A DNA stretch of 58,820 bases from Parcubacteria group bacterium GW2011_GWB1_40_14 (lineage in GTDB: Bacteria; Patescibacteriota; Minisyncoccia; Terrybacterales; GWB1-40-14), in contig LBYG01000002.1 of the NCBI GenBank assembly GCA_000996085.1, positions 1-58,820 of the forward strand. Reading direction: 5' to 3'. Position 1 is the first letter of the stretch. The number at the start of each line of letters is the position of its first letter. The translations under genes were made by a program, and so were the position numbers. The notes beneath the pieces were generated by a model. It was not told the origin of the DNA. It made no database searches and saw nothing but the letters and a program-made list of their open reading frames with translations. Shown here one piece after another: positions 2,624-57,998 of this stretch.

Positions 2624-4105
2624 ATGCTTAAAATTATGGATTCGAATAAGCTCACCATGACTCCGAGTAAGATCGAACGGGTCAAAGCAAAATATATTGT
2701 ACGCTTTGTTCTGGGGCTTGTTGTATCTGTTATATTAATAAATAATCTGGCAGAAGTTCTCAGCAATTCCCGCAATAAAAGCTTTTATCTCACTGCGGAT
2801 TTGGTACGCGCTATAGGCGATACGCGTGTTTATTATTTAGAGGAAGGTAAAAAGCGATGGGTAGAATCTTTTGAAAGTTTTCAAGCGCAAGGTTTTTCCT
2901 GGGATGCTGTGCGCACCATCGCTCCAGAGGAGCTGATGAGTCTGCCTGAAGGAGACAAGATAACATCTGCTTCACCGGTAATTCTTGCGGGTGAAGAAAC
3001 AAGACTTCCGGATCTTGTACCGCTATCCGCAGAAGAAATTCAATATGATACTTTAAATGGCAGAAAAATACTGCGTTTTACTTCTGTATTTTTAAATCAA
3101 GGGGGCGGATTTCTTGAAGTTGTAGCAAAACCCCTTACTTTATCAACAGATGCATTAAAAGAAGTATTTCAACGAGTAGTTAACACAAACGGAACGGAAC
3201 GTTTGCGCCTTACCGGTTATTTTCTCTGGCACGCCATGCACGGGCATTATCATGTTACTAATGTTATGGGTTATATGTTGGAGCCGGCAGATTCAAAAGG
3301 CACAGTTATATCCGCAAAAGAGAAAGTTAGTTTTTGTTTGCGTGACGATCGTATTGAAAATAGTTCTGTTTCCGCCGCAACGAGAACTTTCAGTACATGC
3401 ACCAGCACACGTCAAGGAGTTTCTGTCGGATGGGCGGATGTGTATAGTTATTCACTTCCGGACCAATATCTTGACGTACATGGTTTAACACCCGCTACGT
3501 ACCGTCTTCTTCTGGACAGTAATCCAAAAGGATCCATATTGGAGAATAGATTAGATAACAACCGGAGTATTGTGATTGCGTATATGGATCCTGCAAACAA
3601 TATATTTAATGTTTTGGGTAAGGCAGTACCCTTGCCGGGATTTTCTTCATTTCCTGACGGTACTACAATAAGATCGCAAAGCGATAACGTTGCCTATGTA
3701 ATGTTCCATAATAAAAAGCGTTTGTTTCCTCCGGGAATCAGCACCACAACAAGAGGCATTGTATTGCCAAACAGCATAATTGAAACAATATTTACAAATA
3801 ATCTAATAAAAAATTCTAACGGTGTGATATATGCGCTTAACGATAAAGGTTACAGACGTCTATTTCCTTCGCCTGATGCGTATAATTCATATGGATTTAA
3901 TTTTGCCGATATCGCGTTAATTTCAGAACATGAACTTGTATTATACCCTGAAGCAAAATATATTCGTCAGACAGGAAGCGATATTATATATGAAATTAGC
4001 GGCAATACTAAGAAAATCGTAAATAATATTTCAGCAATATCGCCTGATATGGTTCATGTTATAAATATAATAGATTTTAATTCATATACTACAGTAGCCA
4101 ATTAA
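2624..4105 (+). CDS. Membrane-anchored lysyl-oxidase-like copper amine oxidase domain protein
   Basis: LOX signatures: WHAMHGHYH (compare WHSCHQHYH), KVSFCLRD (compare KASFCLED), and QGVSVGWADVYSYSLPDQYLDV (compare [22 protein letters not shown]). N-terminal TM helix. Flanked by ~40-aa repeat modules. Confidence 0.75.
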   Translation: MLKIMDSNKLTMTPSKIERVKAKYIVRFVLGLVVSVILINNLAEVLSNSRNKSFYLTADLVRAIGDTRVYYLEEGKKRWVESFESFQAQGFSWDAVRTIAPEELMSLPEGDKITSASPVILAGEETRLPDLVPLSAEEIQYDTLNGRKILRFTSVFLNQGGGFLEVVAKPLTLSTDALKEVFQRVVNTNGTERLRLTGYFLWHAMHGHYHVTNVMGYMLEPADSKGTVISAKEKVSFCLRDDRIENSSVSAATRTFSTCTSTRQGVSVGWADVYSYSLPDQYLDVHGLTPATYRLLLDSNPKGSILENRLDNNRSIVIAYMDPANNIFNVLGKAVPLPGFSSFPDGTTIRSQSDNVAYVMFHNKKRLFPPGISTTTRGIVLPNSIIETIFTNNLIKNSNGVIYALNDKGYRRLFPSPDAYNSYGFNFADIALISEHELVLYPEAKYIRQTGSDIIYEISGNTKKIVNNISAISPDMVHVINIIDFNSYTTVAN

Positions 4106-4112
4106 TTTTATG

Positions 4113-4250
4113 CCAGGTAGTGAAAATTCGACTGTTCGCTAAGCGAACAAGGCTACTTAGAGCAATATTATAGTTTTAATCTATTACTTTTTAAATATTA
4201 ACTATTAGAAAGAAGTTCGATAGTTTGAATGTCGAATTTCTACTACCTGG
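4113..4250 (+). repeat. Inverted-arm element, family 1, copy A (between TATG flanks)
   Basis: Arms CCAGGTAGTGAAAATTCGAC and GTCGAATTTCTACTACCTGG. Hairpin GTTCGC-taa-GCGAAC. TATG at 4109-4112 and 4251-4254. Confidence 0.8.
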
Positions 4251-4251
4251 T

Positions 4252-4971
4252 ATGGAGTTTGATATTTTCAAAAAATATCCCAACTTAAAATACGGTATTT
4301 CAAAAAAGAGGCACGGTTCGTTAAAAAAAATTACCGCAGATTTTAATTCTGCGGATATTTTTAGAAGAAATGAAAAGGATTTTTTAACCAGAGAGGGGAT
4401 TAAAGATTCAAAAATATATGAGCTCAAGCAAGTTCACGGAAATAAAGTTTTGAATTCAGAGAATATAACCGGTAACGCTACTTTTGTTGCCGATGCTTTG
4501 GTTACCAATGCACCAAATAAAGTTTTAACTATTACCGTTGCCGATTGTTATCCAATTTATCTTTTTGATCCTACCCGCAAGATCGTTGCCATTGCTCACG
4601 CGGGTTGGCGGGGCATAACGAAAGATATTTTATGCAATGTTATAGATTATTTTGTTTTAAAGTTTTCTTCTGATCCGCAAGATATTTTAGTCGGCATAGG
4701 TCCCGGGCTGGGCAAATGCCATTTTGAGGTCAAGGAAGATGTTTTGGACAATTTTACTGCATATCCTGAAGAAATCGAACATAAAAATGGGAAAATTTTC
4801 GTTGATTTGCCCGCTATTTTGGAGAAAAAAATGCTTGAACGAGGGTTAAAGCGGGAAAATATAGAATTTTCCGGTTTGTGTACTTATTGCGAGAACGGAA
4901 AATTTTTTTCCCGGCGCAGAGATAAGAATTCCGACGAGGTAATGATGGCTTATATTGGAATGACCGTTTAA
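4252..4971 (+). CDS. pgeF: Peptidoglycan editing factor PgeF / YfiH (DUF152, laccase-domain) protein
   Basis: Motifs AHAGWRG, CHFEV and CTYC..FFSRRRD. ATG 4252 is preferred over the TTG at 4225, which lies inside the repeat arm. Confidence 0.85.
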   Translation: MEFDIFKKYPNLKYGISKKRHGSLKKITADFNSADIFRRNEKDFLTREGIKDSKIYELKQVHGNKVLNSENITGNATFVADALVTNAPNKVLTITVADCYPIYLFDPTRKIVAIAHAGWRGITKDILCNVIDYFVLKFSSDPQDILVGIGPGLGKCHFEVKEDVLDNFTAYPEEIEHKNGKIFVDLPAILEKKMLERGLKRENIEFSGLCTYCENGKFFSRRRDKNSDEVMMAYIGMTV

Positions 4972-18440: not shown

Positions 18441-19865
18441 TTATACTTCAAAGTGTTTTTCTATATTCCAGAACATTGCACGTTCAGGATCAAAGCGCAG
18501 AGTAATTTCACCTACCGGACCATTTCTGTGTTTGGCAACATGTATTTTGGCTATATTTTTTACGCCCGAGTCCTTTTTAACCATATCTTCGCGCCAGATC
18601 AACATAACCACATCCGCGTCTTGTTCTATTGCGCCTGATTCGCGCAGATCTGAAAGTTTGGGTCTTTGGTCGGGTCTTGCTTCAACAGCGCGGGAAAGCT
18701 GAGAAACGGCTATAACAGGCACGTTTAGTTCGCGGGCCAATGCTTTCAATGAACGCGATATTTCAGTGACCTGTTGGACCATATTGTCTGTATTTGTATG
18801 CGAGGTTATTAATTGCAGATAGTCTACGATAATAAGAGAAAGATCGTGTTTGGCTTGCAGACGGCGTGCCATAGCGCGCATTTGGAGCACTGTTGAAGAA
18901 ACCGCGTCATCAATAAAAATAGGAGCGTCTGCCAATTGGTCTAATGCATCACGCAAACGGTCAAAATCTTCTGTAGATAATCTTCCCGTACGCATTCGCC
19001 ACAGATCAACATTGGCTTGAGCCGCTAATAATCTGTCGACAACCTGTTCTTTGGACATTTCTAAACTGAATATTCCGACGGATTTTTTTTCATTGACCGC
19101 AACATGGCGCGCGATACTTAAGGCTAAAGAAGTTTTACCGATTGACGGTCTTGCGGCAATAACGATCATATCGGAAGGTTGCAGACCGGAAAGCATATTA
19201 TCCATATCAGTAAAACCTGTTGCGACCCCGCGTATAGATCCTTCGTGGTGCGATAATTGTTCTAATCTGTCAAAAGTTTTTGCTAATTCATCTTTAACCG
19301 GGCCGAATTCTTGCGTCATGGCGTGCTGTGAAATAGAGAATATTTTTTGTTCGGCTTCGTCTAAAAGTTCGTCCATGTGTCTTGTCTCATTCCAGCCAAG
19401 TTGTGCGATATGCCATGAAGCATCGATAAGATCGCGTAATAATCTTTTTTTCTGAATTATTTTTGCATAGTGTACTACGTGGGAAGAGGTTGGTACCATA
19501 TTCACCAGACTAGCCAAATATGTACGACCGCCGATATCTTCAAGTACGTTGCCGTCTTTTAATCGTGTTGAAACAGAAAGTATATCAATCGGTTCGTGAT
19601 GAGTAAAAAGATCAAGCATTGCCTGATATATAACCCTGTGTTGTTTGCGATAAAAGTCTTCTGTGCGTAAAAAATCAACAACGCGAATAATAGCGTTGTT
19701 ATCCAAAAGCATGCTTCCAAGCAAAGATTGTTCCGCGTCAATGTCCTGGGGCGGTATACGGCCGGATGGAACCGCTAAAGAAAGATCTGTTTCCGGCATT
19801 GCCAGGAGATCTTTGAGAGTTAAAGCTTCATTTTTTGATTTTTTAGCAAAGGTTTTCTTGGCCAT
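18441..19865 (-). CDS. dnaB: Replicative DNA helicase DnaB
   Basis: Walker A ARPSIGKTS plus the DnaB N- and C-terminal domains. The start is taken at MAKKTF (ATG 19863-19865), not the upstream ATG inside the hairpin element. Confidence 0.9.
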   Translation of the reverse strand: MAKKTFAKKSKNEALTLKDLLAMPETDLSLAVPSGRIPPQDIDAEQSLLGSMLLDNNAIIRVVDFLRTEDFYRKQHRVIYQAMLDLFTHHEPIDILSVSTRLKDGNVLEDIGGRTYLASLVNMVPTSSHVVHYAKIIQKKRLLRDLIDASWHIAQLGWNETRHMDELLDEAEQKIFSISQHAMTQEFGPVKDELAKTFDRLEQLSHHEGSIRGVATGFTDMDNMLSGLQPSDMIVIAARPSIGKTSLALSIARHVAVNEKKSVGIFSLEMSKEQVVDRLLAAQANVDLWRMRTGRLSTEDFDRLRDALDQLADAPIFIDDAVSSTVLQMRAMARRLQAKHDLSLIIVDYLQLITSHTNTDNMVQQVTEISRSLKALARELNVPVIAVSQLSRAVEARPDQRPKLSDLRESGAIEQDADVVMLIWREDMVKKDSGVKNIAKIHVAKHRNGPVGEITLRFDPERAMFWNIEKHFEV

Positions 19866-19932
19866 GCCGTGGTTGTCCCTGAGCAAAGCGAAGGATACAA
19901 CTACGTGCATCCTGAGCGAAGTCGAAGGATTA
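19863..19932 (-). promoter_or_regulatory. Two-hairpin start-codon-proximal element, dnaB copy
   Basis: Homologous to 23564-23640 and 24128-24196, with compensatory substitutions in both stems. Confidence 0.5.
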
Positions 19933-20016
19933 CTTTAATTATTACCAGCTTATCGTTTAAAACCAACACAGGCAATGGTGGATAAAGTGGAGAAAATGTG
20001 GATTGTTGATAGTAGA

Positions 20017-23563: not shown

Positions 23564-23640
23564 TCCGCCTTCGCCTAAGGCTTTGGCGGATGCACATCGT
23601 TGCATCCGCTCTTCGCAGAAGCGAATCGCGGGCAACGATG
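23564..23640 (+). promoter_or_regulatory. Two-hairpin start-codon-proximal element, grpE copy
   Basis: H1 is TCCGCC..GGCGGA. H2 is CATCGTTGC..GCAACGATG, and its 3' arm contains the grpE ATG (23638-23640). Confidence 0.5.
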
Positions 23641-24105: not shown

Positions 24106-24127
24106 ATAATTTTATCTAATTCTAGTA

Positions 24128-24196
24128 ATCCCTCGACTTCGCTCGGGATGCACATTGTTGCAACCGCTCTCGAAGTTCGCGGGCAACAATGGCATG
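24128..24196 (+). promoter_or_regulatory. Two-hairpin start-codon-proximal element, dnaK copy
   Basis: H1 is ATCCC..GGGAT. H2 is CATTGTTGC..GCAACAATG and ends 2 nt before the dnaK ATG at 24194. Confidence 0.5.
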
Positions 24197-26098
24197 TCAA
24201 AAGTATTAGGTATCGATCTTGGCACAACCAATTCTGCTATGGCGGTAATGGAAAATGGAGAGCCTAAGATTCTAGAAAATTCTGAAGGCGTAAGAACCAC
24301 TCCTTCTATTGTTTCTATAAATAAATCCGGCGAAAGAGCTGTTGGTGTTTTAGCTAAGCGTCAGGCTGTGACTAACGCTGAAAACACAATTTTTTCAGCT
24401 AAAAGACTCATCGGCAGGAGGTTTTCGGATATTGAAGTTCAAAGAGATAAAGAATGGCTTCCTTATACTATTCGTGAATCATCGAACGGTGGAGTTGAAA
24501 TAAAAATGGGAGATAAGTGGTATGCTCCTCAGGAAATCTCCGCAATGATTTTGTCGAAACTCAAAGCTAACGCTGAAGCAAGATTAGGAACCACAATAAC
24601 CGATGCGGTTATCACTGTACCGGCTTATTTTGATGATGCTCAAAGAAAATCAACTAAGGAAGCGGGAGAAATTGCAGGTTTTAATGTTAGACGGATAATT
24701 AATGAGCCCACAGCCGCTGCTTTGGCATATGGATTAGAAAAGAAAAAGAATGAAAAAATTGTAGTTTATGATTTTGGCGGAGGAACATTTGATGTTTCGG
24801 TCCTTGAAATTTCTGAAAATACCGTTGAAGTTAAAGCCACAGGCGGTGATACGCATTTGGGCGGAGACGATCTTGATAAGAAGATTATTGGCTGGCTGAT
24901 TGATGAATTTAAAAAAGATCAGGGTATAGATCTATCTAAAGACAAATTAGCCTTACAACGACTCAAAGAAGGAGCTGAACGCGCCAAACTTGAACTCTCG
25001 AGTACAAATGAAACCGAAATCAATATACCTTTTATTACTTCGGACGCTCAGGGACCGAAACATCTTTTGCTTAAATTAAGTCGCGCTCAATTTGAAGAAT
25101 TGGTTCATGATTATATAGAGAGATCCGTACAGATAGTAAAAGATGTCGTTGGTGAAGCTAAATTTTCATTATCGGATATTAATGAAGTGGTAATGGTTGG
25201 TGGGCAGACTAGAATGCCGGCCATTCAAGAGGCGGTAGGCAAACTTTTTGGCAAGGAGCCTCATATGGGGATTAATCCTGATGAGGTTGTGGCTATTGGA
25301 GCTGCTGCGCAAGGTGGTATTATGGAAGGAGAGGTACACGATGTTCTTTTACTCGATGTTACACCCTTATCTTTGGGCATTGAAACGTTGGGTAACGTGA
25401 TGACCCCTATTATTGAGAAAAATACAACGATTCCTGTCTCAAAAGCCCAAGTTTTTTCAACTGCAGCCGATAATCAACCCTCTGTAGAGATACATGTTTT
25501 GCAGGGCGAAAGAACATTAGCCAACGACAATAAAACATTGGCCAGATTCATACTGGATGGTCTTCCGCCTTCTCCAAGAGGGGTGCCTCAAGTTGAAGTT
25601 ACATTTGATATTGATGCTAACGGTATTTTGAACGTTACAGCTAAGGATAAAGCTACAGGTAAGGCTCAAACTGTTCGTGTAGAAGCATCAACCGGACTAT
25701 CAAAAGAAGAGGTAGAAAGAATGAAAAAAGATGCAGAAATGCACGCAGATGAAGACCGCAAAAAGAAGGAAACTGTTGAAGCTCGTAATACATCAGACGC
25801 ACTGATATATTCTACAGAACGTGTTTTGCGTGAAAATTCCGAAAAAATTTCTCAGGATATCCGAAAAGATGTCGAAGATAAATTAAAAACCTTGAAAGAG
25901 GTTAAAGATAAAGATGATATAGCTGCAATTCGAAGAGCTATGGAAGATCTATCCCAAGCCGCTCAAAAAATCGGCTCTACGTTGTATAGCAAAGAGCAGA
26001 GCGCGGGACCTCAAGATTCTTCGCAGAGTGATTCAGCTGAGAAGCCTGCCGATGTTGAAGACGGGCAAACCGAAGAGTCAGGAGACAATAAAGCATAA
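24194..26098 (+). CDS. dnaK: Chaperone DnaK (Hsp70)
   Basis: [19 protein letters not shown] and full-length Hsp70. Start at [10 protein letters not shown]. Confidence 0.95.
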
Positions 26099-26104
26099 AT
26101 TATG

Positions 26105-26241
26105 CCAGGTAGTGAAATTCGACCGTTCCGCTAAAAGCGGAACAAAAGTATCTGGCAAACAATACAATAAAATTAATAAATAAAAGTTTAAACACGAAAT
26201 TCGTTAATTAAAAATGTAAAAGTCGAATTTCTACTACCTGG
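26105..26241 (+). repeat. Inverted-arm element, family 1, copy B
   Basis: Arms CCAGGTAGTGAAATTCGAC and GTCGAATTTCTACTACCTGG. Hairpin GTTCCGC-taaaa-GCGGAAC. TATG flanks at 26101-26104 and 26242-26245. Confidence 0.8.
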
Positions 26242-26242
26242 T

Positions 26243-27202
26243 ATGAATAAGATAAAAGCTATTTTTCCTGTTTTTGTTTTAATGGCATTGTTTGTTTTGA
26301 CCATGGTGGGTGTTTGGACCGCGGCAGGACAAATGTTATCGGGCGACGGAGGAAGAACATTGAATTTATTCGGTTTTGAATTGCCGGTCACTTCTTTTGT
26401 ATCCGTATATACTTTAATTGTAGTTTCAGCTGTATTTTATTCTCTTATCGTGTTAGTTGAGGGTAAACTTATTTTTATAGCGATTGGTTCTTTGGCGGCG
26501 CTAATTCTATCTTTGCCGATTCTTTTTGGTCAGGTGTCGATATATATAATAGCTATTATCCCGTGTTTAGGTTTGTGGATATTTTCTGCGTGGCGCATGA
26601 AAGAAATTATTAAGGATTTGCTGCCGTGGAAACCTTCTTGGGCTTTACATGCCGGGCTACCGCTTTATTTTACAGCTTTAAGTATTATTTTTACGGCTGC
26701 GATATTGGCCTCTCCCTCTGCCGAAAAGTTTTTAAGCGAGCCACTACCCAAAGAGGTGGTATTTTTTGGTTTATCTTATATTGAAAAACCCATTGAAAGG
26801 TTTGCGAATCTTAATATAAATCATACGGTTGACCAAGCTATAGAAATTTCAAGTGAAGGCAAAATTAAAGATCCTCGGCTTTTGGCGCAAGCTCGCGCGG
26901 AACTTAGTAAATCTTTGGGAGCGGTTCTTTCAGGTGAAGAGACCGTTAAAGATGTTATTTTTCAGATAGTAAATCGAGAGATCAATAAAGTAAAAGATCA
27001 GGCGGGGGATCTTTTCTTGATTATTTTTGCAGTAAGCTCATTTTTTATGTTTCAACTTTTGGCTTGGCCTGCAAAAATTATTGCCAATATGGCTACACGA
27101 TTTATGCTATTTACATTTGAGGCCGGCGGAGTAATAGTTGTTGAAGACAGGTCTGCGAGAAAATATTTCGCGCATTGGAAATCTTCTCCGCCAATCATAT
27201 AA
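26243..27202 (+). CDS. Polytopic membrane protein of unknown function inserted between dnaK and dnaJ
   Basis: Multiple hydrophobic helices. No recognised family. Confidence 0.6.
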   Translation: MNKIKAIFPVFVLMALFVLTMVGVWTAAGQMLSGDGGRTLNLFGFELPVTSFVSVYTLIVVSAVFYSLIVLVEGKLIFIAIGSLAALILSLPILFGQVSIYIIAIIPCLGLWIFSAWRMKEIIKDLLPWKPSWALHAGLPLYFTALSIIFTAAILASPSAEKFLSEPLPKEVVFFGLSYIEKPIERFANLNINHTVDQAIEISSEGKIKDPRLLAQARAELSKSLGAVLSGEETVKDVIFQIVNREINKVKDQAGDLFLIIFAVSSFFMFQLLAWPAKIIANMATRFMLFTFEAGGVIVVEDRSARKYFAHWKSSPPII

Positions 27203-49851: not shown

Positions 49852-50064
49852 ATGGGAGTTAAAGGTTTACGTAAGTCCGGAATGGTGGCAGAAGCATTAC
49901 CTGCGACACTTTTTAAAGTTTTACTGGATGATGGAACACATATTTTGGCGCATCTTTCCGGTAAAATGCGCGTAAATTTTATAAGAATTATGCCAGGCGA
50001 CCGGGTTGTAGTAGAAATGCCCGACGAGAATTCTGCTCGTGGTCGTATTGTTTACCGCGAATAA
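49852..50064 (+). CDS. infA: Translation initiation factor IF-1
   Basis: VAEALPATLFKVLLDDGTHILAHLSGKMRVNFIRIMPGDRVVVEM..RGRIVYR. Confidence 0.9.
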   Translation: MGVKGLRKSGMVAEALPATLFKVLLDDGTHILAHLSGKMRVNFIRIMPGDRVVVEMPDENSARGRIVYRE

Positions 50065-50071
50065 ATCTATG

Positions 50072-50199
50072 CCAGGTAGTGAAAATTCGACCGTTTCGCG
50101 TAGCGAAACAAAATTATCTGGTAATTTGTTAAAGTTAGTATTATATTTTTATCAAAAAGTTCGATGATTAAGTTTTAAAGTCGAATTTCTACTACCTGG
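50072..50199 (+). repeat. Inverted-arm element, family 1, copy C
   Basis: Arms CCAGGTAGTGAAAATTCGAC and GTCGAATTTCTACTACCTGG. Hairpin GTTTCGC-gta-GCGAAAC. TATG flanks at 50068-50071 and 50200-50203. Confidence 0.8.
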
Positions 50200-50200
50200 T

Positions 50201-50314
50201 ATGAAAGTAAGAGCATCAGTTAAAAAAATGTGTCGAGATTGCAAAATCGTCCGAAGAAGGGGACGAGTTGCTGTTATTTGCAAGAATCCTAAACATAAAC
50301 AACGACAAGGATAA
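50201..50314 (+). CDS. rpmJ: Ribosomal protein L36 (not in the ORF track because it is under 60 aa)
   Basis: Hand translation: [37 protein letters not shown]. Confidence 0.9.
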
Positions 50315-56943: not shown

Positions 56944-57998
56944 ATGTTTATTAAGAAAATAGGAATAGACCTCGGAACAACCAATTCGTTAGTATTTGTC
57001 CCCGGACGCGGGATCATTTTGAATGAACCTACGGTGGTTGCTATCTCCACATCAGATAATACTGTTTTGGCTGTTGGCGCTGAGGCAAAAGATATGATCG
57101 GTCGCACTCCAGATACTATAGTTGCTCATCGTCCTATGAAAGACGGAGTGATTTCGGATTATCGTATCACGGCAGCCATGCTTAGATATTTTATAGGTAA
57201 GGCAACGGGCTCTTTTAGGATTTTGAGACCGGACGTAATGGTTTCAGTTCCTGCCGGTTTAGGATTTTGAGACCGGACGTAATGGTTTCAGTTCCTGCCG
57301 GTATTACCTCTACAGAACGTCGAGCAGTTACCGAAGCTGCGGTACATGCCGGAGCCAAAGGAGCCTATGTCGTTAAAGAGCCCATATTGGCTGCTATAGG
57401 GGCTGGTTTGCCTATTAATTCAGCATCTGGAAATATGATCGTAAATATCGGTGGCGGTACAAGTGAAGTGGCGGTCATAGCATTGGGAGGAATAGTTAGT
57501 TGGGCTTCGGTTCGTGTTGCGGGAAATAAGATCGATCATGCCATAACCGACTATATTAAGAAAAAACATAATTTGGCTATAGGTGAGCGTACCGCCGAGT
57601 ATATTAAAGTAACCATAGGCAGCGCAGTATCTGAGAAAGGAAAAGAAGATAGTATGGAGATCCGTGGTCGGGATTTATTAAACGGTTTGCCTCGTACTAT
57701 AGTGATCAAATCAAGTGAAATTACTGATGCGATAGCCGAAACCCTTCGTGAAATAATTCAAGCAGTTAAAGCTGTTTTACGGGAAACTCCTCCTGAATTA
57801 GCCGCAGATATAATAGAACGCGGCATGACTATTTCAGGCGGCACTGCGCTTTTACGTAATTTAGACCAGCTAATAACCTCATCTACAGGCGTTCAGGCTA
57901 TAGTTGCAGAAGAGCCGCTGCTTTGTGTCGCAAAAGGAACGGGTGTTGCCCTGGAAAACTTAGATGTTTATAAAAAGAGTATAATTACCAGAAAATAG
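56944..57998 (+). pseudogene. mreB: Rod-shape protein MreB interrupted by a 44-bp tandem duplication
   Basis: GIDLGTTNS.. and ..NIGGGTSEVAVI... The ORFs 56944..57270 and 57267..57998 rejoin into one 336-aa MreB if one 44-bp unit is removed. Confidence 0.85.
57214..57301 (+). repeat. Perfect 44-bp tandem duplication (2 units)
   Basis: TTTAGGATTTTGAGACCGGACGTAATGGTTTCAGTTCCTGCCGG at 57214-57257 and again at 57258-57301. Confidence 0.95.

Follow-up and report, generated by a model that had tools for sequence, protein, structure and literature searches.

The analysed window is a stretch of 58,820 nucleotides (contig LBYG01000002.1) of Parcubacteria group bacterium GW2011_GWB1_40_14. It contains three short repeats, called copies A, B and C, each lodged between the stop codon of one gene and the start codon of the next. 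Copy A separates a gene for a 493-aa lysyl-oxidase-like protein from a PgeF/Cu-oxidase_4 family gene, copy B lies between dnaK and the gene of a 319-aa protein that is followed by dnaJ, and copy C lies between infA and rpmJ. The 319-aa protein had been taken for a membrane protein in the preceding sequence-only reading, and it has no Pfam match. The coordinates of all features are collected in the table.

Features of the three repeats in the window
Feature	Position	Strand	Description
Upstream stop, copy A	4103-4105		TAA of the 493-aa lysyl-oxidase-like gene
Copy A, left TATG	4109-4112	+	left copy of the 4-bp target duplication, 3 nt after the stop
Copy A, left arm	4113-4132	+	CCAGGTAGTGAAAATTCGAC, L type, GA at positions 10-11
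Copy A, hairpin	4133-4149	+	arm-adjacent GC hairpin, TGTTCGC-TAA-GCGAACA
Copy A, interior	4150-4230	+	AT-rich; no detectable similarity to most other copies; subterminal TTCGAT motif near the right arm
Copy A, right arm	4231-4250	+	GTCGAATTTCTACTACCTGG, R type
Copy A, right TATG	4251-4254	+	right copy of the duplication; ATG 4252-4254 starts the PgeF/Cu-oxidase_4 gene (4252-4971)
Upstream stop, copy B	26096-26098		stop of dnaK
Copy B, whole	26101-26245	+	includes both TATG copies; ATG at 26243 starts the 319-aa protein gene
Copy B, left TATG	26101-26104		
Copy B, left arm	26105-26123		1-nt deletion
Copy B, hairpin	26125-26143		
Copy B, right arm	26222-26241		
Copy B, right TATG	26242-26245		
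Upstream stop, copy C	50062-50064		stop of infA
Copy C, whole	50068-50203	+	includes both TATG copies; ATG at 50201 starts rpmJ; polymorphic in the natural population
Copy C, left TATG	50068-50071		
Copy C, left arm	50072-50091		
Copy C, hairpin	50093-50109		
Copy C, right arm	50180-50199		
Copy C, right TATG	50200-50203		

The observation made in the sequence-only reading was confirmed in all its features. The two 20-nt arms pair through 18 Watson-Crick pairs, one G.T and one A.C, and the upstream TAA stops lie 2-3 nt before the left TATG. The arm 20-mer occurs five times in the window with up to three mismatches, against 0.00 expected in shuffled sequences; the shortened left arm of copy B is the sixth arm, and a looser motif search found no further copy in the window. 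The hairpin stems of the three copies differ by compensated changes. The genome is also SD-poor, as had been noted: GGAG or GAGG lies upstream of 1 of 39 genes, compared with 5.7% at random positions.

Insertion sites and target duplication in related elements

Related elements were retrieved from many Patescibacteria MAGs, and the L numbers below denote the retrieved loci, among which the window's own contig was not present. The gene-less elements are 67-157 nt long and were found in more than 100 genome stretches, which is a lower bound, with about 25 loci contributed by PEYL01 alone. To distinguish a target duplication from an element end, we recorded the flanks of the related copies, a check that the sequence-only reading had itself proposed. 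Canonical flanks are TATG/TATG in 33 elements and CATA/CATA in seven, but perfect 4-bp repeats also occur at non-ATG sites (TCAA, TTCA, CTTG, TTAG, CGTA, TATA) and as CATG and AATG, AAAA flanks elements nested in the L arm of another element, and a GAGG/GAGG pair was read by eye. The nested copies of 71 nt are 96-100% identical at five sites of one genome, and tandem arrays share one TATG. Three pairs of filled and empty orthologous sites were found, each with a single CATG or TATG in the empty site.

The three window sites were compared among contigs encoding identical neighbouring proteins. Copies A and B are fixed in the sampled population, while copy C is present in three and absent from six contigs whose flanks are 98-99.9% identical, mostly at least 99.6%. 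However, the alternative allele of copy C is not a clean empty site but an unrelated spacer of about 125 nt, which has no significant fold (z -1.1) and is not repeated in the window. A scan of viral contigs for the arm found no match, so carriage by phages is not shown.

Of 91 TATG-flanked elements, 83 have an ORF of at least 40 codons, or one that runs off the contig end, starting at that ATG, whereas only 26 of 70 non-genic TATG sites in the window (about 37%) are start codons. The association with start codons holds across about 150 elements, and insertions are almost always co-directional with the gene that follows. Beyond the TATG, C is enriched at the next two positions of the target. 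The proposal that the element aims at coupled stop/start junctions was not supported, as only about 20 of 147 elements, the three window copies among them, have an upstream stop within 13 nt; the rule is the start codon. Likewise, the proposed IS200/IS605-style insertion 3' of a tetranucleotide, with an element end that regenerates ATG, or a REP/RAYT-type equivalent, fits the tetranucleotide target, the hairpin structure at the ends and the biased orientation relative to genes. It is nevertheless very unlikely and already contradicted by the data, because both flanks change together at non-TATG sites, the ends are 20-nt terminal inverted repeats and no HUH gene was found between the arms.

The GIY-YIG ORF, the arm stem and the hairpin

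Full-length relatives of 311-333 bp carry one ORF of 87-91 aa between the same arms, which encodes a GIY-YIG protein (Pfam PF01541, E 1e-15). Such an ORF lies between the arms in loci L028, L032, L059 and L075 and in about 60 of the 80 best metagenome relatives, out of more than 489 found. Forty-eight unique ORFs have arms; in ORF orientation the flank is NATG-type and never CATA, and the ORF is always co-directional with the host gene. Across 45 diverged copies the ORF is under purifying selection, with a median dN/dS of 0.12. Residues Y4, R27, H31 and E63 are invariant, and Y6, Y17 and N32 are conserved at 90% or more. The AF2 model of the protein has a pLDDT of 91.6, and its closest matches are UPF0213 BH0048 and the nuclease domain of Slx1, which acts on branched DNA, while I-TevI is more distant. 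The profile E value to 1zg2 is 9e-7, and the Foldseek TMq to Slx1 is 0.57-0.68 with an rmsd of about 2 A for most chains. No such ORF lies in the window, but C-terminal ORF remnants occur inside the MITE-size copies L004 and L055.

The inferred cognate gene is neither an HUH nor a DDE transposase but this GIY-YIG nuclease. In about 190 arm-flanked elements from about 200 loci nothing but the GIY-YIG ORF lies between the arms, and in about 200 loci no arm pair further apart than about 350 nt and no transposase ORF between arms was seen. A search for a full-size IS with the same arms, allowing arm pairs up to several kb apart, led to candidate stretches in L044 and L059 that contained only ordinary genes or the small GIY-YIG ORF. 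It could still be argued that the ORF is a passenger, such as a homing endonuclease gene that invaded a MITE, and that a DDE transposase encoded elsewhere makes the duplication: inverted repeats with a target duplication of fixed length are the hallmark of DDE transposition, GIY-YIG enzymes are not known as transposases, and many ORF-less copies lack any trace of the ORF. We consider this unlikely. The ORF fits the element exactly, its ATG lying 27-34 nt after the left flanking triplet (30 nt in most copies) and its stop lying from within the right arm to roughly 35 nt before it, and arm subfamilies travel with the ORF and with their own duplication sequence, for example TGGA for CCGGG...ACTCGAC arms. 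Moreover, the compensatory changes in the arms described below point to pairing, which DDE ends do not need.

The arms covary as a stem around an invariant core (AGTGAAA / TTTCTACT) that holds a fixed G.T + A.C tandem mismatch. Of 20 arm pairs, 11 show compensatory double changes (54 cells), a value reached in 0 of 500 shuffles; positions 7-13 are invariant and position 14 nearly so, and the mismatch is present in 49 of 49 arm variants. Of 95 ORF-less elements, 64 have an arm-adjacent GC hairpin, against 2.7 in shuffled interiors, with 32 distinct stems. The hairpin lies at the gene-distal end in 34 of 39 informative ORF-less elements, also where the arm types are swapped.

The second explanation offered in the sequence-only reading, a selected RNA structure such as an RNase III processing site, is not excluded as an additional layer on a mobile element. 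In this view, the 24-bp stem formed by the arms plus UAUG/UAUG and the 5' hairpin would act on the host operon transcript as an RNase III site, as a 3'-end stabiliser of the upstream mRNA, or as a device coupling translation of the downstream gene to ribosomes that unwind the left arm. The predicted stem, with one A.C mismatch, exceeds about 20 bp of double-stranded RNA, and the sense RNA folds in silico with z -7 to -10 and sequesters the AUG. The arms are perfect in 45 of 56 non-ascertained cases, while the interiors are saturated, most mid-size ORF-less copies sharing no interior similarity (0.53 against 0.52 for shuffled). In orthologous diverged pairs the arms match at 117 of 120 positions and the interiors at 130 of 161. 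The lack of SD sequences in the genome, the position of the hairpin, the tolerance of insertions in front of rpmJ, an rpmH-like gene and the dnaK operon, and four elements (L020, L045, L049 and L056) that keep an intact right arm next to the start codon while the left arm is decayed or absent would also agree with a constraint at the RNA level.

However, this reading remains tentative and rests on sequence alone. Conservation and covariation of the arms are equally expected if the nuclease needs a DNA stem, the orientation bias can come from non-palindromic overhangs or from descent from co-directional full-length copies, and the antisense RNA folds about as well. A search of Rfam at the gathering thresholds returned only a tRNA in the window and nothing in 12 related loci of the TGGA subfamily. 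Scans for consensus promoters and terminators found nothing consistent in the three copies, and the hairpin is not a consensus terminator on either strand; the ideas that the hairpin is an intrinsic terminator or the right arm a promoter were dropped.

A small mobile element and its closest known systems

We interpret the three window repeats as non-autonomous, MITE-like derivatives of a family of very small mobile elements widespread in Patescibacteria, and we put the probability of the reading set out here at roughly 0.7. The interpretation of the sequence-only reading was partly supported, as the mobile element and the TATG target duplication held while the junction targeting and the IS200/IS605-style mechanism did not. 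The analysis itself establishes the 4-bp duplication (for this subfamily nearly always TATG), the almost constant and co-directional position at start codons, by which the right TATG keeps the ATG of the host gene, the full-length relatives with their conserved ORF, the covarying arms with their fixed mismatch, and the covarying hairpin at the upstream end of ORF-less copies. The mechanism, including mobilisation by the nuclease and its expression, is inferred, and RNase III cleavage is only a possibility. In the proposed model, the left TATG keeps the promoter and initiation region of the host, so that the promoter-less element is expressed from host signals. The Slx1/UPF0213-like nuclease would recognise the core and mismatch of the fold-back stem and cut at the stem base and at TATG(CC) targets with a 4-nt stagger, and the ends would then be joined by host ligase or repair. 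Non-palindromic overhangs of this kind would also explain why the duplicated sequence and the orientation are inherited. The window copies, having lost the ORF, would depend on a nuclease supplied in trans. Resolution by a Holliday-junction-type cut was considered as the excision route, but on paper it gives hairpin-capped breaks instead of excision and was rejected.

The left ATG is in frame with the ORF in 26 of 33 ATG-flanked full-length copies, and gene callers often report a form of 98-101 aa. It is worth noting that this count is not phylogenetically independent, and that 11 of 15 copies without an ATG flank keep the same 30-nt spacing. Moreover, GIY-YIG enzymes are not known to perform strand transfer, and characterised ones leave short 3' overhangs and not 4-nt staggers. 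The combination of near-perfect arms with unrelated interiors is not explained by a purely selfish, decaying MITE alone.

The window copies share with MITEs the terminal inverted repeats, a target duplication of fixed length, the small size without coding capacity, the high copy number and the evidence of movement. Longer elements with the same ends encode only a GIY-YIG nuclease; that this protein mobilises the element is inferred. Literature searches on GIY-YIG proteins with TIR/TSD, MITEs, CPR and Patescibacteria, UPF0213/YhbQ/COG2827 and selfish elements found no description, although the literature covered was incomplete, and the sequence-only reading had likewise named no described element with this behaviour.

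Correia/NEMIS elements of Neisseria are MITEs of about 100-150 bp with terminal inverted repeats and a short target duplication, scattered between genes and co-transcribed with them, and form a long RNA stem that is cleaved by RNase III. Their duplication is TA, however, their 26-bp repeats are unrelated to the arms found here (CCAGGTAGTGAAAATTCGAC), they show no start-codon targeting, no cognate gene is known, and copies within a family are similar to each other, in contrast to the unrelated interiors found here. MIRUs (mycobacterial interspersed repetitive units) lie between stop and start codons of genes in operons, with small ORFs overlapping both, but they are tandem direct repeats without inverted arms, duplication or a cognate nuclease.

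Free-standing GIY-YIG homing endonuclease genes (phage T4 seg/mobE type) and I-TevI likewise combine a selfish ORF carrying a GIY-YIG catalytic domain with a position between host genes and reliance on host transcription. A homing-like pattern was seen in copies L146, L148 and L156, which are 99-100% identical at one orthologous site although one or both flanks are only 81-85% identical. Homing genes, in contrast, have no inverted repeats, target duplication or non-autonomous derivatives, and they have one cognate site, spread by double-strand-break repair and carry extra DNA-binding domains, whereas here the protein is the bare 88-aa domain and the insertions lie in front of dozens of different genes.

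The eukaryotic piggyBac transposons have a 4-bp sequence-specific duplication (TTAA), short inverted repeats starting CCC and seamless excision that restores a single target through complementary 4-nt overhangs, which is the outcome inferred here. Their enzyme is a large DDE transposase and their target is palindromic, and for the present element there is no evidence for hairpin intermediates or for the actual cut positions. A DDE transposase gene between the repeats, as would be expected of DDE insertion sequences with a 4-bp duplication (IS5, IS701 and IS1380 groups), was not seen in about 200 loci. IS200/IS605 elements with their PATEs and REP/RAYT (REPIN) systems are also small, with ends recognised as DNA hairpins with conserved irregularities, a tetranucleotide target, abundant gene-less hairpin derivatives and a strand or orientation bias, but they use an HUH Y1 transposase, have subterminal hairpins instead of terminal inverted repeats, and make no target duplication, and each of these differences was tested here. 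The closest sequence and fold relatives of the encoded protein, UPF0213 (BH0048, EF2693 and probably E. coli YhbQ) and the structure-specific nuclease Slx1, which cuts branched and stem-loop DNA, are cellular proteins not known to be flanked by repeats or to be mobile, and Slx1 needs Slx4 and has a RING domain.

It is about as likely as not that the parent of these copies represents a new class of prokaryotic transposable element. At about 315 bp it would be the smallest autonomous one known, with an 88-aa nuclease in place of a DDE, HUH, serine or tyrosine enzyme or Cas1. If the GIY-YIG protein is the mobilising enzyme, this would add a nuclease-only mechanism to the known ways in which DNA transposes and set a new lower size limit for an autonomous element. 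In practice, the arms are a simple marker for annotating these elements, the left TATG causes gene callers to add 10 spurious residues to the nuclease, and the element breaks assemblies at repeats. Mobilisation by the GIY-YIG protein would also explain thousands of annotations as GIY-YIG nuclease family protein in Patescibacteria, which total at least 1980 clusters at 90% identity, and it may explain the non-intron GIY-YIG insertions reported in CPR rRNA genes (PMC11270868). Insertion at the start codon that preserves the host ATG is a neat way for a parasite to live in genomes that are about 89% coding, and it bears on how SD-less bacteria start translation next to a 24-bp stem.

Genomic context and distribution of the elements

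The three copies described in the sequence-only reading are present at the positions assigned to them, and the observation is therefore confirmed. Each copy consists of TATG, a 20-nt left arm CCAGGTAGTGAAAATTCGAC (19 nt in copy B), a short GC hairpin, an AT-rich interior, a right arm GTCGAATTTCTACTACCTGG and a second TATG. The arms give 18 Watson-Crick pairs, one G.T and one A.C. The 20-mer occurs five times in the window with up to 3 mismatches, against 0.00 expected, and a looser motif search of the window found no fourth copy. The right-hand ATGs are the starts of a PgeF/Cu-oxidase_4 gene, of a gene for a 319-aa protein located between dnaK and dnaJ, and of rpmJ, while the upstream genes end in TAA 2-3 nt before the left TATG. 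The 319-aa protein, previously taken for a membrane protein, gave no Pfam match. The earlier remark that the genome is SD-poor also holds, as GGAG/GAGG precedes 1 of 39 genes, against 5.7% at random positions. By our own count from the same gene starts, T precedes ATG in about half of the genes, so roughly half of all starts are potential TATG targets.

A scan of species-representative genomes with the arm (GTCGAATTTYYACTACCTGG) returned at least 103 stretches. Apart from one isolated arm in a Massilia genome (locus L010) and one hit in a Humimicrobiaceae MAG (locus L037), all are in MAGs, and those with informative names are Patescibacteria: Portnoy-, Yanofsky-, Lipton-, Nealson-, Gottesman- and Berkelbacteria and other Parcubacteria. 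The arm-like 20-mer of the betaproteobacterial Massilia genome has no partner arm and is probably a chance match. One Portnoybacteria genome contributes about 25 loci. Nearly every hit is an L-type arm (GA at positions 10-11) paired with an R-type arm (AG), and the sizes of the elements cluster at about 68 nt, at 105-157 nt and, in two cases, at about 315 nt. Moreover, other short palindromic elements in loci L007, L012 and L027 share only the terminal CCAGGTAGT...ACTACCTGG and have different inner arms, for example CCAGGTAGTCCTGCCTGCCGGCAGGCAGGACTACCTGG, which suggests further subfamilies that use the same termini.

Two further features of the window were recorded. A shared leader of about 65-75 nt with two GC hairpins around ATGCAC(A/G)T and the consensus ...TCGACTTCGCTC(R)GGATGCAC...GGGCAAC(N)ATGGC is a candidate heat-shock regulatory element (operator or RNA thermometer). 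There is also a perfect tandem duplication of a 44-nt unit (TTTAGGATTTTGAGACCGGACGTAATGGTTTCAGTTCCTGCCGG).

Positions of the features discussed in the text, in the window and in related genome and metagenome loci (L numbers)
Sequence	Position	Feature
Window	50065-50200	infA-rpmJ spacer with copy C
L184	about 1714-1840	Unrelated spacer in place of copy C
L185, L187, L188, L190, L191		Unrelated spacer in place of copy C
Window	23566-23640 (+), 24117-24195 (+), 19860-19941 (-)	Shared leader preceding grpE, dnaK and a minus-strand gene
Window	57214-57301	Tandem duplication of a 44-nt unit
L007	1-64	Short palindromic element with other inner arms
L012	78-165	Short palindromic element with other inner arms
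L027	1103-1199	Short palindromic element with other inner arms
L010	4827-4846	Isolated arm-like 20-mer (Massilia sp.)
L020	about 3660-3888	Left arm decayed or missing, right arm intact
L045	about 3640-3790	Left arm decayed or missing, right arm intact
L049	about 1050-1069	Left arm decayed or missing, right arm intact
L056	about 1740-1918	Left arm decayed or missing, right arm intact
L146	about 2474-2784	Full-length element at an orthologous site
L148	about 593-903	Full-length element at an orthologous site
L156	about 746-1056	Full-length element at an orthologous site

Target duplication and insertion sites

In canonical orientation, the flanks of the elements are TATG/TATG in 33 cases and CATA/CATA in 7. 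Elements at other sites carry perfect 4-bp direct repeats of other sequence, namely TCAA, TTCA, CTTG, TTAG, CGTA, TATA, CATG and AATG, as well as GAGG, which was read by eye. This rules out the idea that the repeat is merely two start-like sequences or an element end. In several loci, a 71-nt element flanked by AAAA sits inside the left arm of another element, and these nested copies are 96-100% identical at five sites of one genome. Likewise, tandem arrays share a single TATG. Searches with joined flanks gave three orthologous filled/empty pairs: locus L026 has one CATG where L095 has CATG-element-CATG, while L095 and L073 have single TATG starts where L026 and L096 are filled. The first of these pairs was read by eye because MAFFT misplaced the gap.

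Of the window copies, A and B are present and B is identical in all ten contigs that encode the same neighbouring protein. Copy C is present in three contigs, whereas in six others it is replaced by an unrelated ~125-nt spacer (TTTAGCCGACACGAAATACGAATGCG...TTTAGCATCGACTC), although the flanks are 98-99.9% identical (mostly at least 99.6%). The spacer has its own inverted repeat (CGAATGCGAATG / CATAATTCGCATTG) and AAAATTCG motifs, but its fold is not significant (z -1.1) and it is not repeated in the window. It could be a second element using the same junction.

Of 147 distinct elements, 83 have an ORF of at least 40 codons (or one running off the contig end) starting at the ATG of the right flank, 16 have one at the left flank and 3 at both. 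Among the 91 TATG-flanked elements, 83 are at such a start, and at least four of the eight exceptions are technical, as rpmJ is 37 aa long and three lie near contig ends. The window contains 455 TATG sites, of which 26 are start codons and 44 are otherwise intergenic; avoidance of gene disruption alone would therefore give about 37%, not above 90%. An upstream stop within 13 nt is present in only about 20 of the 147 elements surveyed (the three window copies among them), so the stop/start junction, which had been proposed as the target, is not the rule.

The two bases after TATG are enriched in C (43% and 38%), whereas by our own count C follows the ATG in about 18% of the window's gene starts. 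The preferred target therefore resembles the element's own left junction TATG|CC. However, a subfamily with CCGGG...ACTCGAC (CCGGGTAGTGAAAACTCGAC-type) arms always has TGGA duplications and is not at start codons, and target choice therefore belongs to the element lineage. In this subfamily, which includes full-length copies (L105, L123, L136, L158 and L178) and copies of about 72 nt (L133, L161, L167, L172 and L180), the flank reads TGGACCGG on both sides. Some of its elements lie just downstream of promoter-like TTGACT-N17-TATTAC, and no Rfam match was found nearby.

The GIY-YIG gene and the pairing of the arms

The two long genome elements, two more found by tblastn and about 60 of the 80 best of more than 489 metagenome relatives carry one ORF between the same arms. 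The ORF is 87-91 aa long and is a GIY-YIG domain (PF01541, E 1e-15). The fit is exact: the ATG lies 27-34 nt after the left flanking triplet (30 nt in most copies), and the stop lies from within the right arm to roughly 35 nt before it. Forty-eight unique ORFs have recognisable arms, and in ORF orientation the flank is NATG-type and never CATA, with the arms L to R in 44 and swapped in 4. The median dN/dS among 45 ORFs is 0.12; Y4, R27, H31 and E63 are invariant, and Y6, Y17 and N32 are conserved at 90% or more. The MITE-size copies in loci L004 and L055 still encode the last 15-23 residues next to an arm, so at least some short elements are deletion derivatives. No other gene was seen between arms in any of the loci examined, and the window has no homologue of the ORF.

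The protein family has at least 1980 clusters at 90% identity, named only 'GIY-YIG nuclease family protein' or 'putative endonuclease'. Its nearest solved relatives are UPF0213 proteins and the nuclease domain of Slx1, a structure-specific nuclease, while I-TevI is more distant. Close GIY-YIG relatives without recognisable arms lie directly downstream of a short TGGA-type element in loci L122, L126, L133, L161, L163, L166-L168, L172, L180 and L182, and may be immobilised or domesticated copies. Moreover, the full-length copies L146, L148 and L156 are 99-100% identical at one orthologous site although one or both flanks are only 81-85% identical. The element is thus younger than the divergence of its hosts, which suggests homing-like spread or repeated invasion of the same TATG.

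The analysis of 49 distinct arm pairs showed compensatory double changes at 11 of 20 positions (54 cells), and none of 500 shuffles and no slid register comes near this. Positions 7-13 (AGTGAAA opposite TTTCTAC) are invariant, pair 14 is unchanged in 47 of 49, and the G.T and A.C mismatches at positions 10-11 are present in 49 of 49. Ends that are bound separately as duplex DNA do not need to stay complementary, so this pattern points to a paired form, which could be single-stranded or cruciform DNA, or RNA, with a protein-read core about one helical turn from the stem base.

The expression logic of the element is inferred. The element has no room for a promoter, and none was found in the window copies. 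Because the start codon is duplicated, the left ATG retains the host gene's upstream region, and in 26 of 33 ATG-flanked full-length copies it is in frame with the nuclease ORF, giving MPGSENSTAI-MF... However, this statistic is weakened by the fact that copies without an ATG flank keep the same spacing. Gene callers often report the 98-101 aa form. The nuclease stop lies immediately before or within a few tens of nt of the right arm (by our estimate some 20-55 nt before the host ATG), so re-initiation is plausible. In the window copies, the left ATG opens mini-ORFs of 10, 10 and 32 codons, whose translation would unwind the left arm.

Short copies and relation to known systems

A GC-rich hairpin within 5 nt of an arm, usually followed by an A run, is present in 64 of 95 ORF-less elements, against 2.7 in shuffled interiors, and there are 32 different stems. 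The hairpin lies at the gene-distal end in 34 of 39 informative cases (35 of 40 counting window copy C), even where the L and R arm types are swapped, and it is absent from full-length copies. The interiors of mid-size copies are no more alike than shuffled sequence (0.53 against 0.52), yet the arm that was not used for ascertainment is perfect in 45 of 56. In three orthologous diverged pairs, the arms match at 117 of 120 positions and the interiors at 130 of 161. The arms are therefore constrained in place, and the cause could be dependence on the nuclease, for example one-sided cleavage being harmful, or an RNA role. The four elements in which only the right arm, next to the host start codon, is intact hint that this arm may be kept for the host gene's sake, although the numbers are too small to test. 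In the sense transcript, UAUG is predicted to pair with UAUG (two G.U), giving a 24-bp stem that includes the start codon, with z -7 to -10. The earlier suggestion of an RNase III site is thus physically reasonable on the predicted fold alone, and we keep it as a possible secondary layer.

The window copies fit the descriptive criteria of a MITE. They are not Correia/NEMIS elements, because the duplication and repeats differ, nor IS200/IS605 PATEs or REPINs, because a duplication and inverted repeats are present and no HUH gene was found between the arms. They are also not ends of a DDE IS, because none was found in about 200 loci. The parent differs from homing endonuclease genes in having inverted repeats, duplications, many target genes and non-autonomous derivatives. 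The outcome resembles piggyBac, with a sequence-specific 4-bp duplication and apparently seamless empty sites, but the enzyme is unrelated. Literature searches found no description of the element. One paper notes GIY-YIG proteins in non-intron insertions of CPR rRNA genes without describing ends (PMC11270868), and these may be the same element.

The interpretation offered by the sequence-only reading is thus partly supported: the mobile-element reading is right, although with a different and unexpected cognate enzyme, whereas the stop/start and IS200/IS605 details are wrong or incidental. The mobility of the family, the 4-bp target duplication, its association with start codons, the conserved GIY-YIG ORF between the arms and the covariation of the arms and hairpins rest directly on the data, while the mobilising role of the nuclease, its action on the fold-back structure, the cut positions, the 4-nt stagger, the joining step and the use of host expression signals are inferred, and RNA processing is only a possibility. 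We put the probability that the copies are non-autonomous derivatives of GIY-YIG-bearing mobile elements with a true 4-bp duplication at start codons at about 0.9, and that of the fuller mechanism, including the nuclease as the mobilising enzyme acting on the stem, at about 0.7 or lower. The inference that the nuclease works on the fold-back structure is based on the covariation of the arms together with the Slx1-like fold. Non-palindromic 4-nt overhangs would explain at once the lineage-specific duplication, the fixed orientation relative to the ATG strand and the clean single-copy empty sites.
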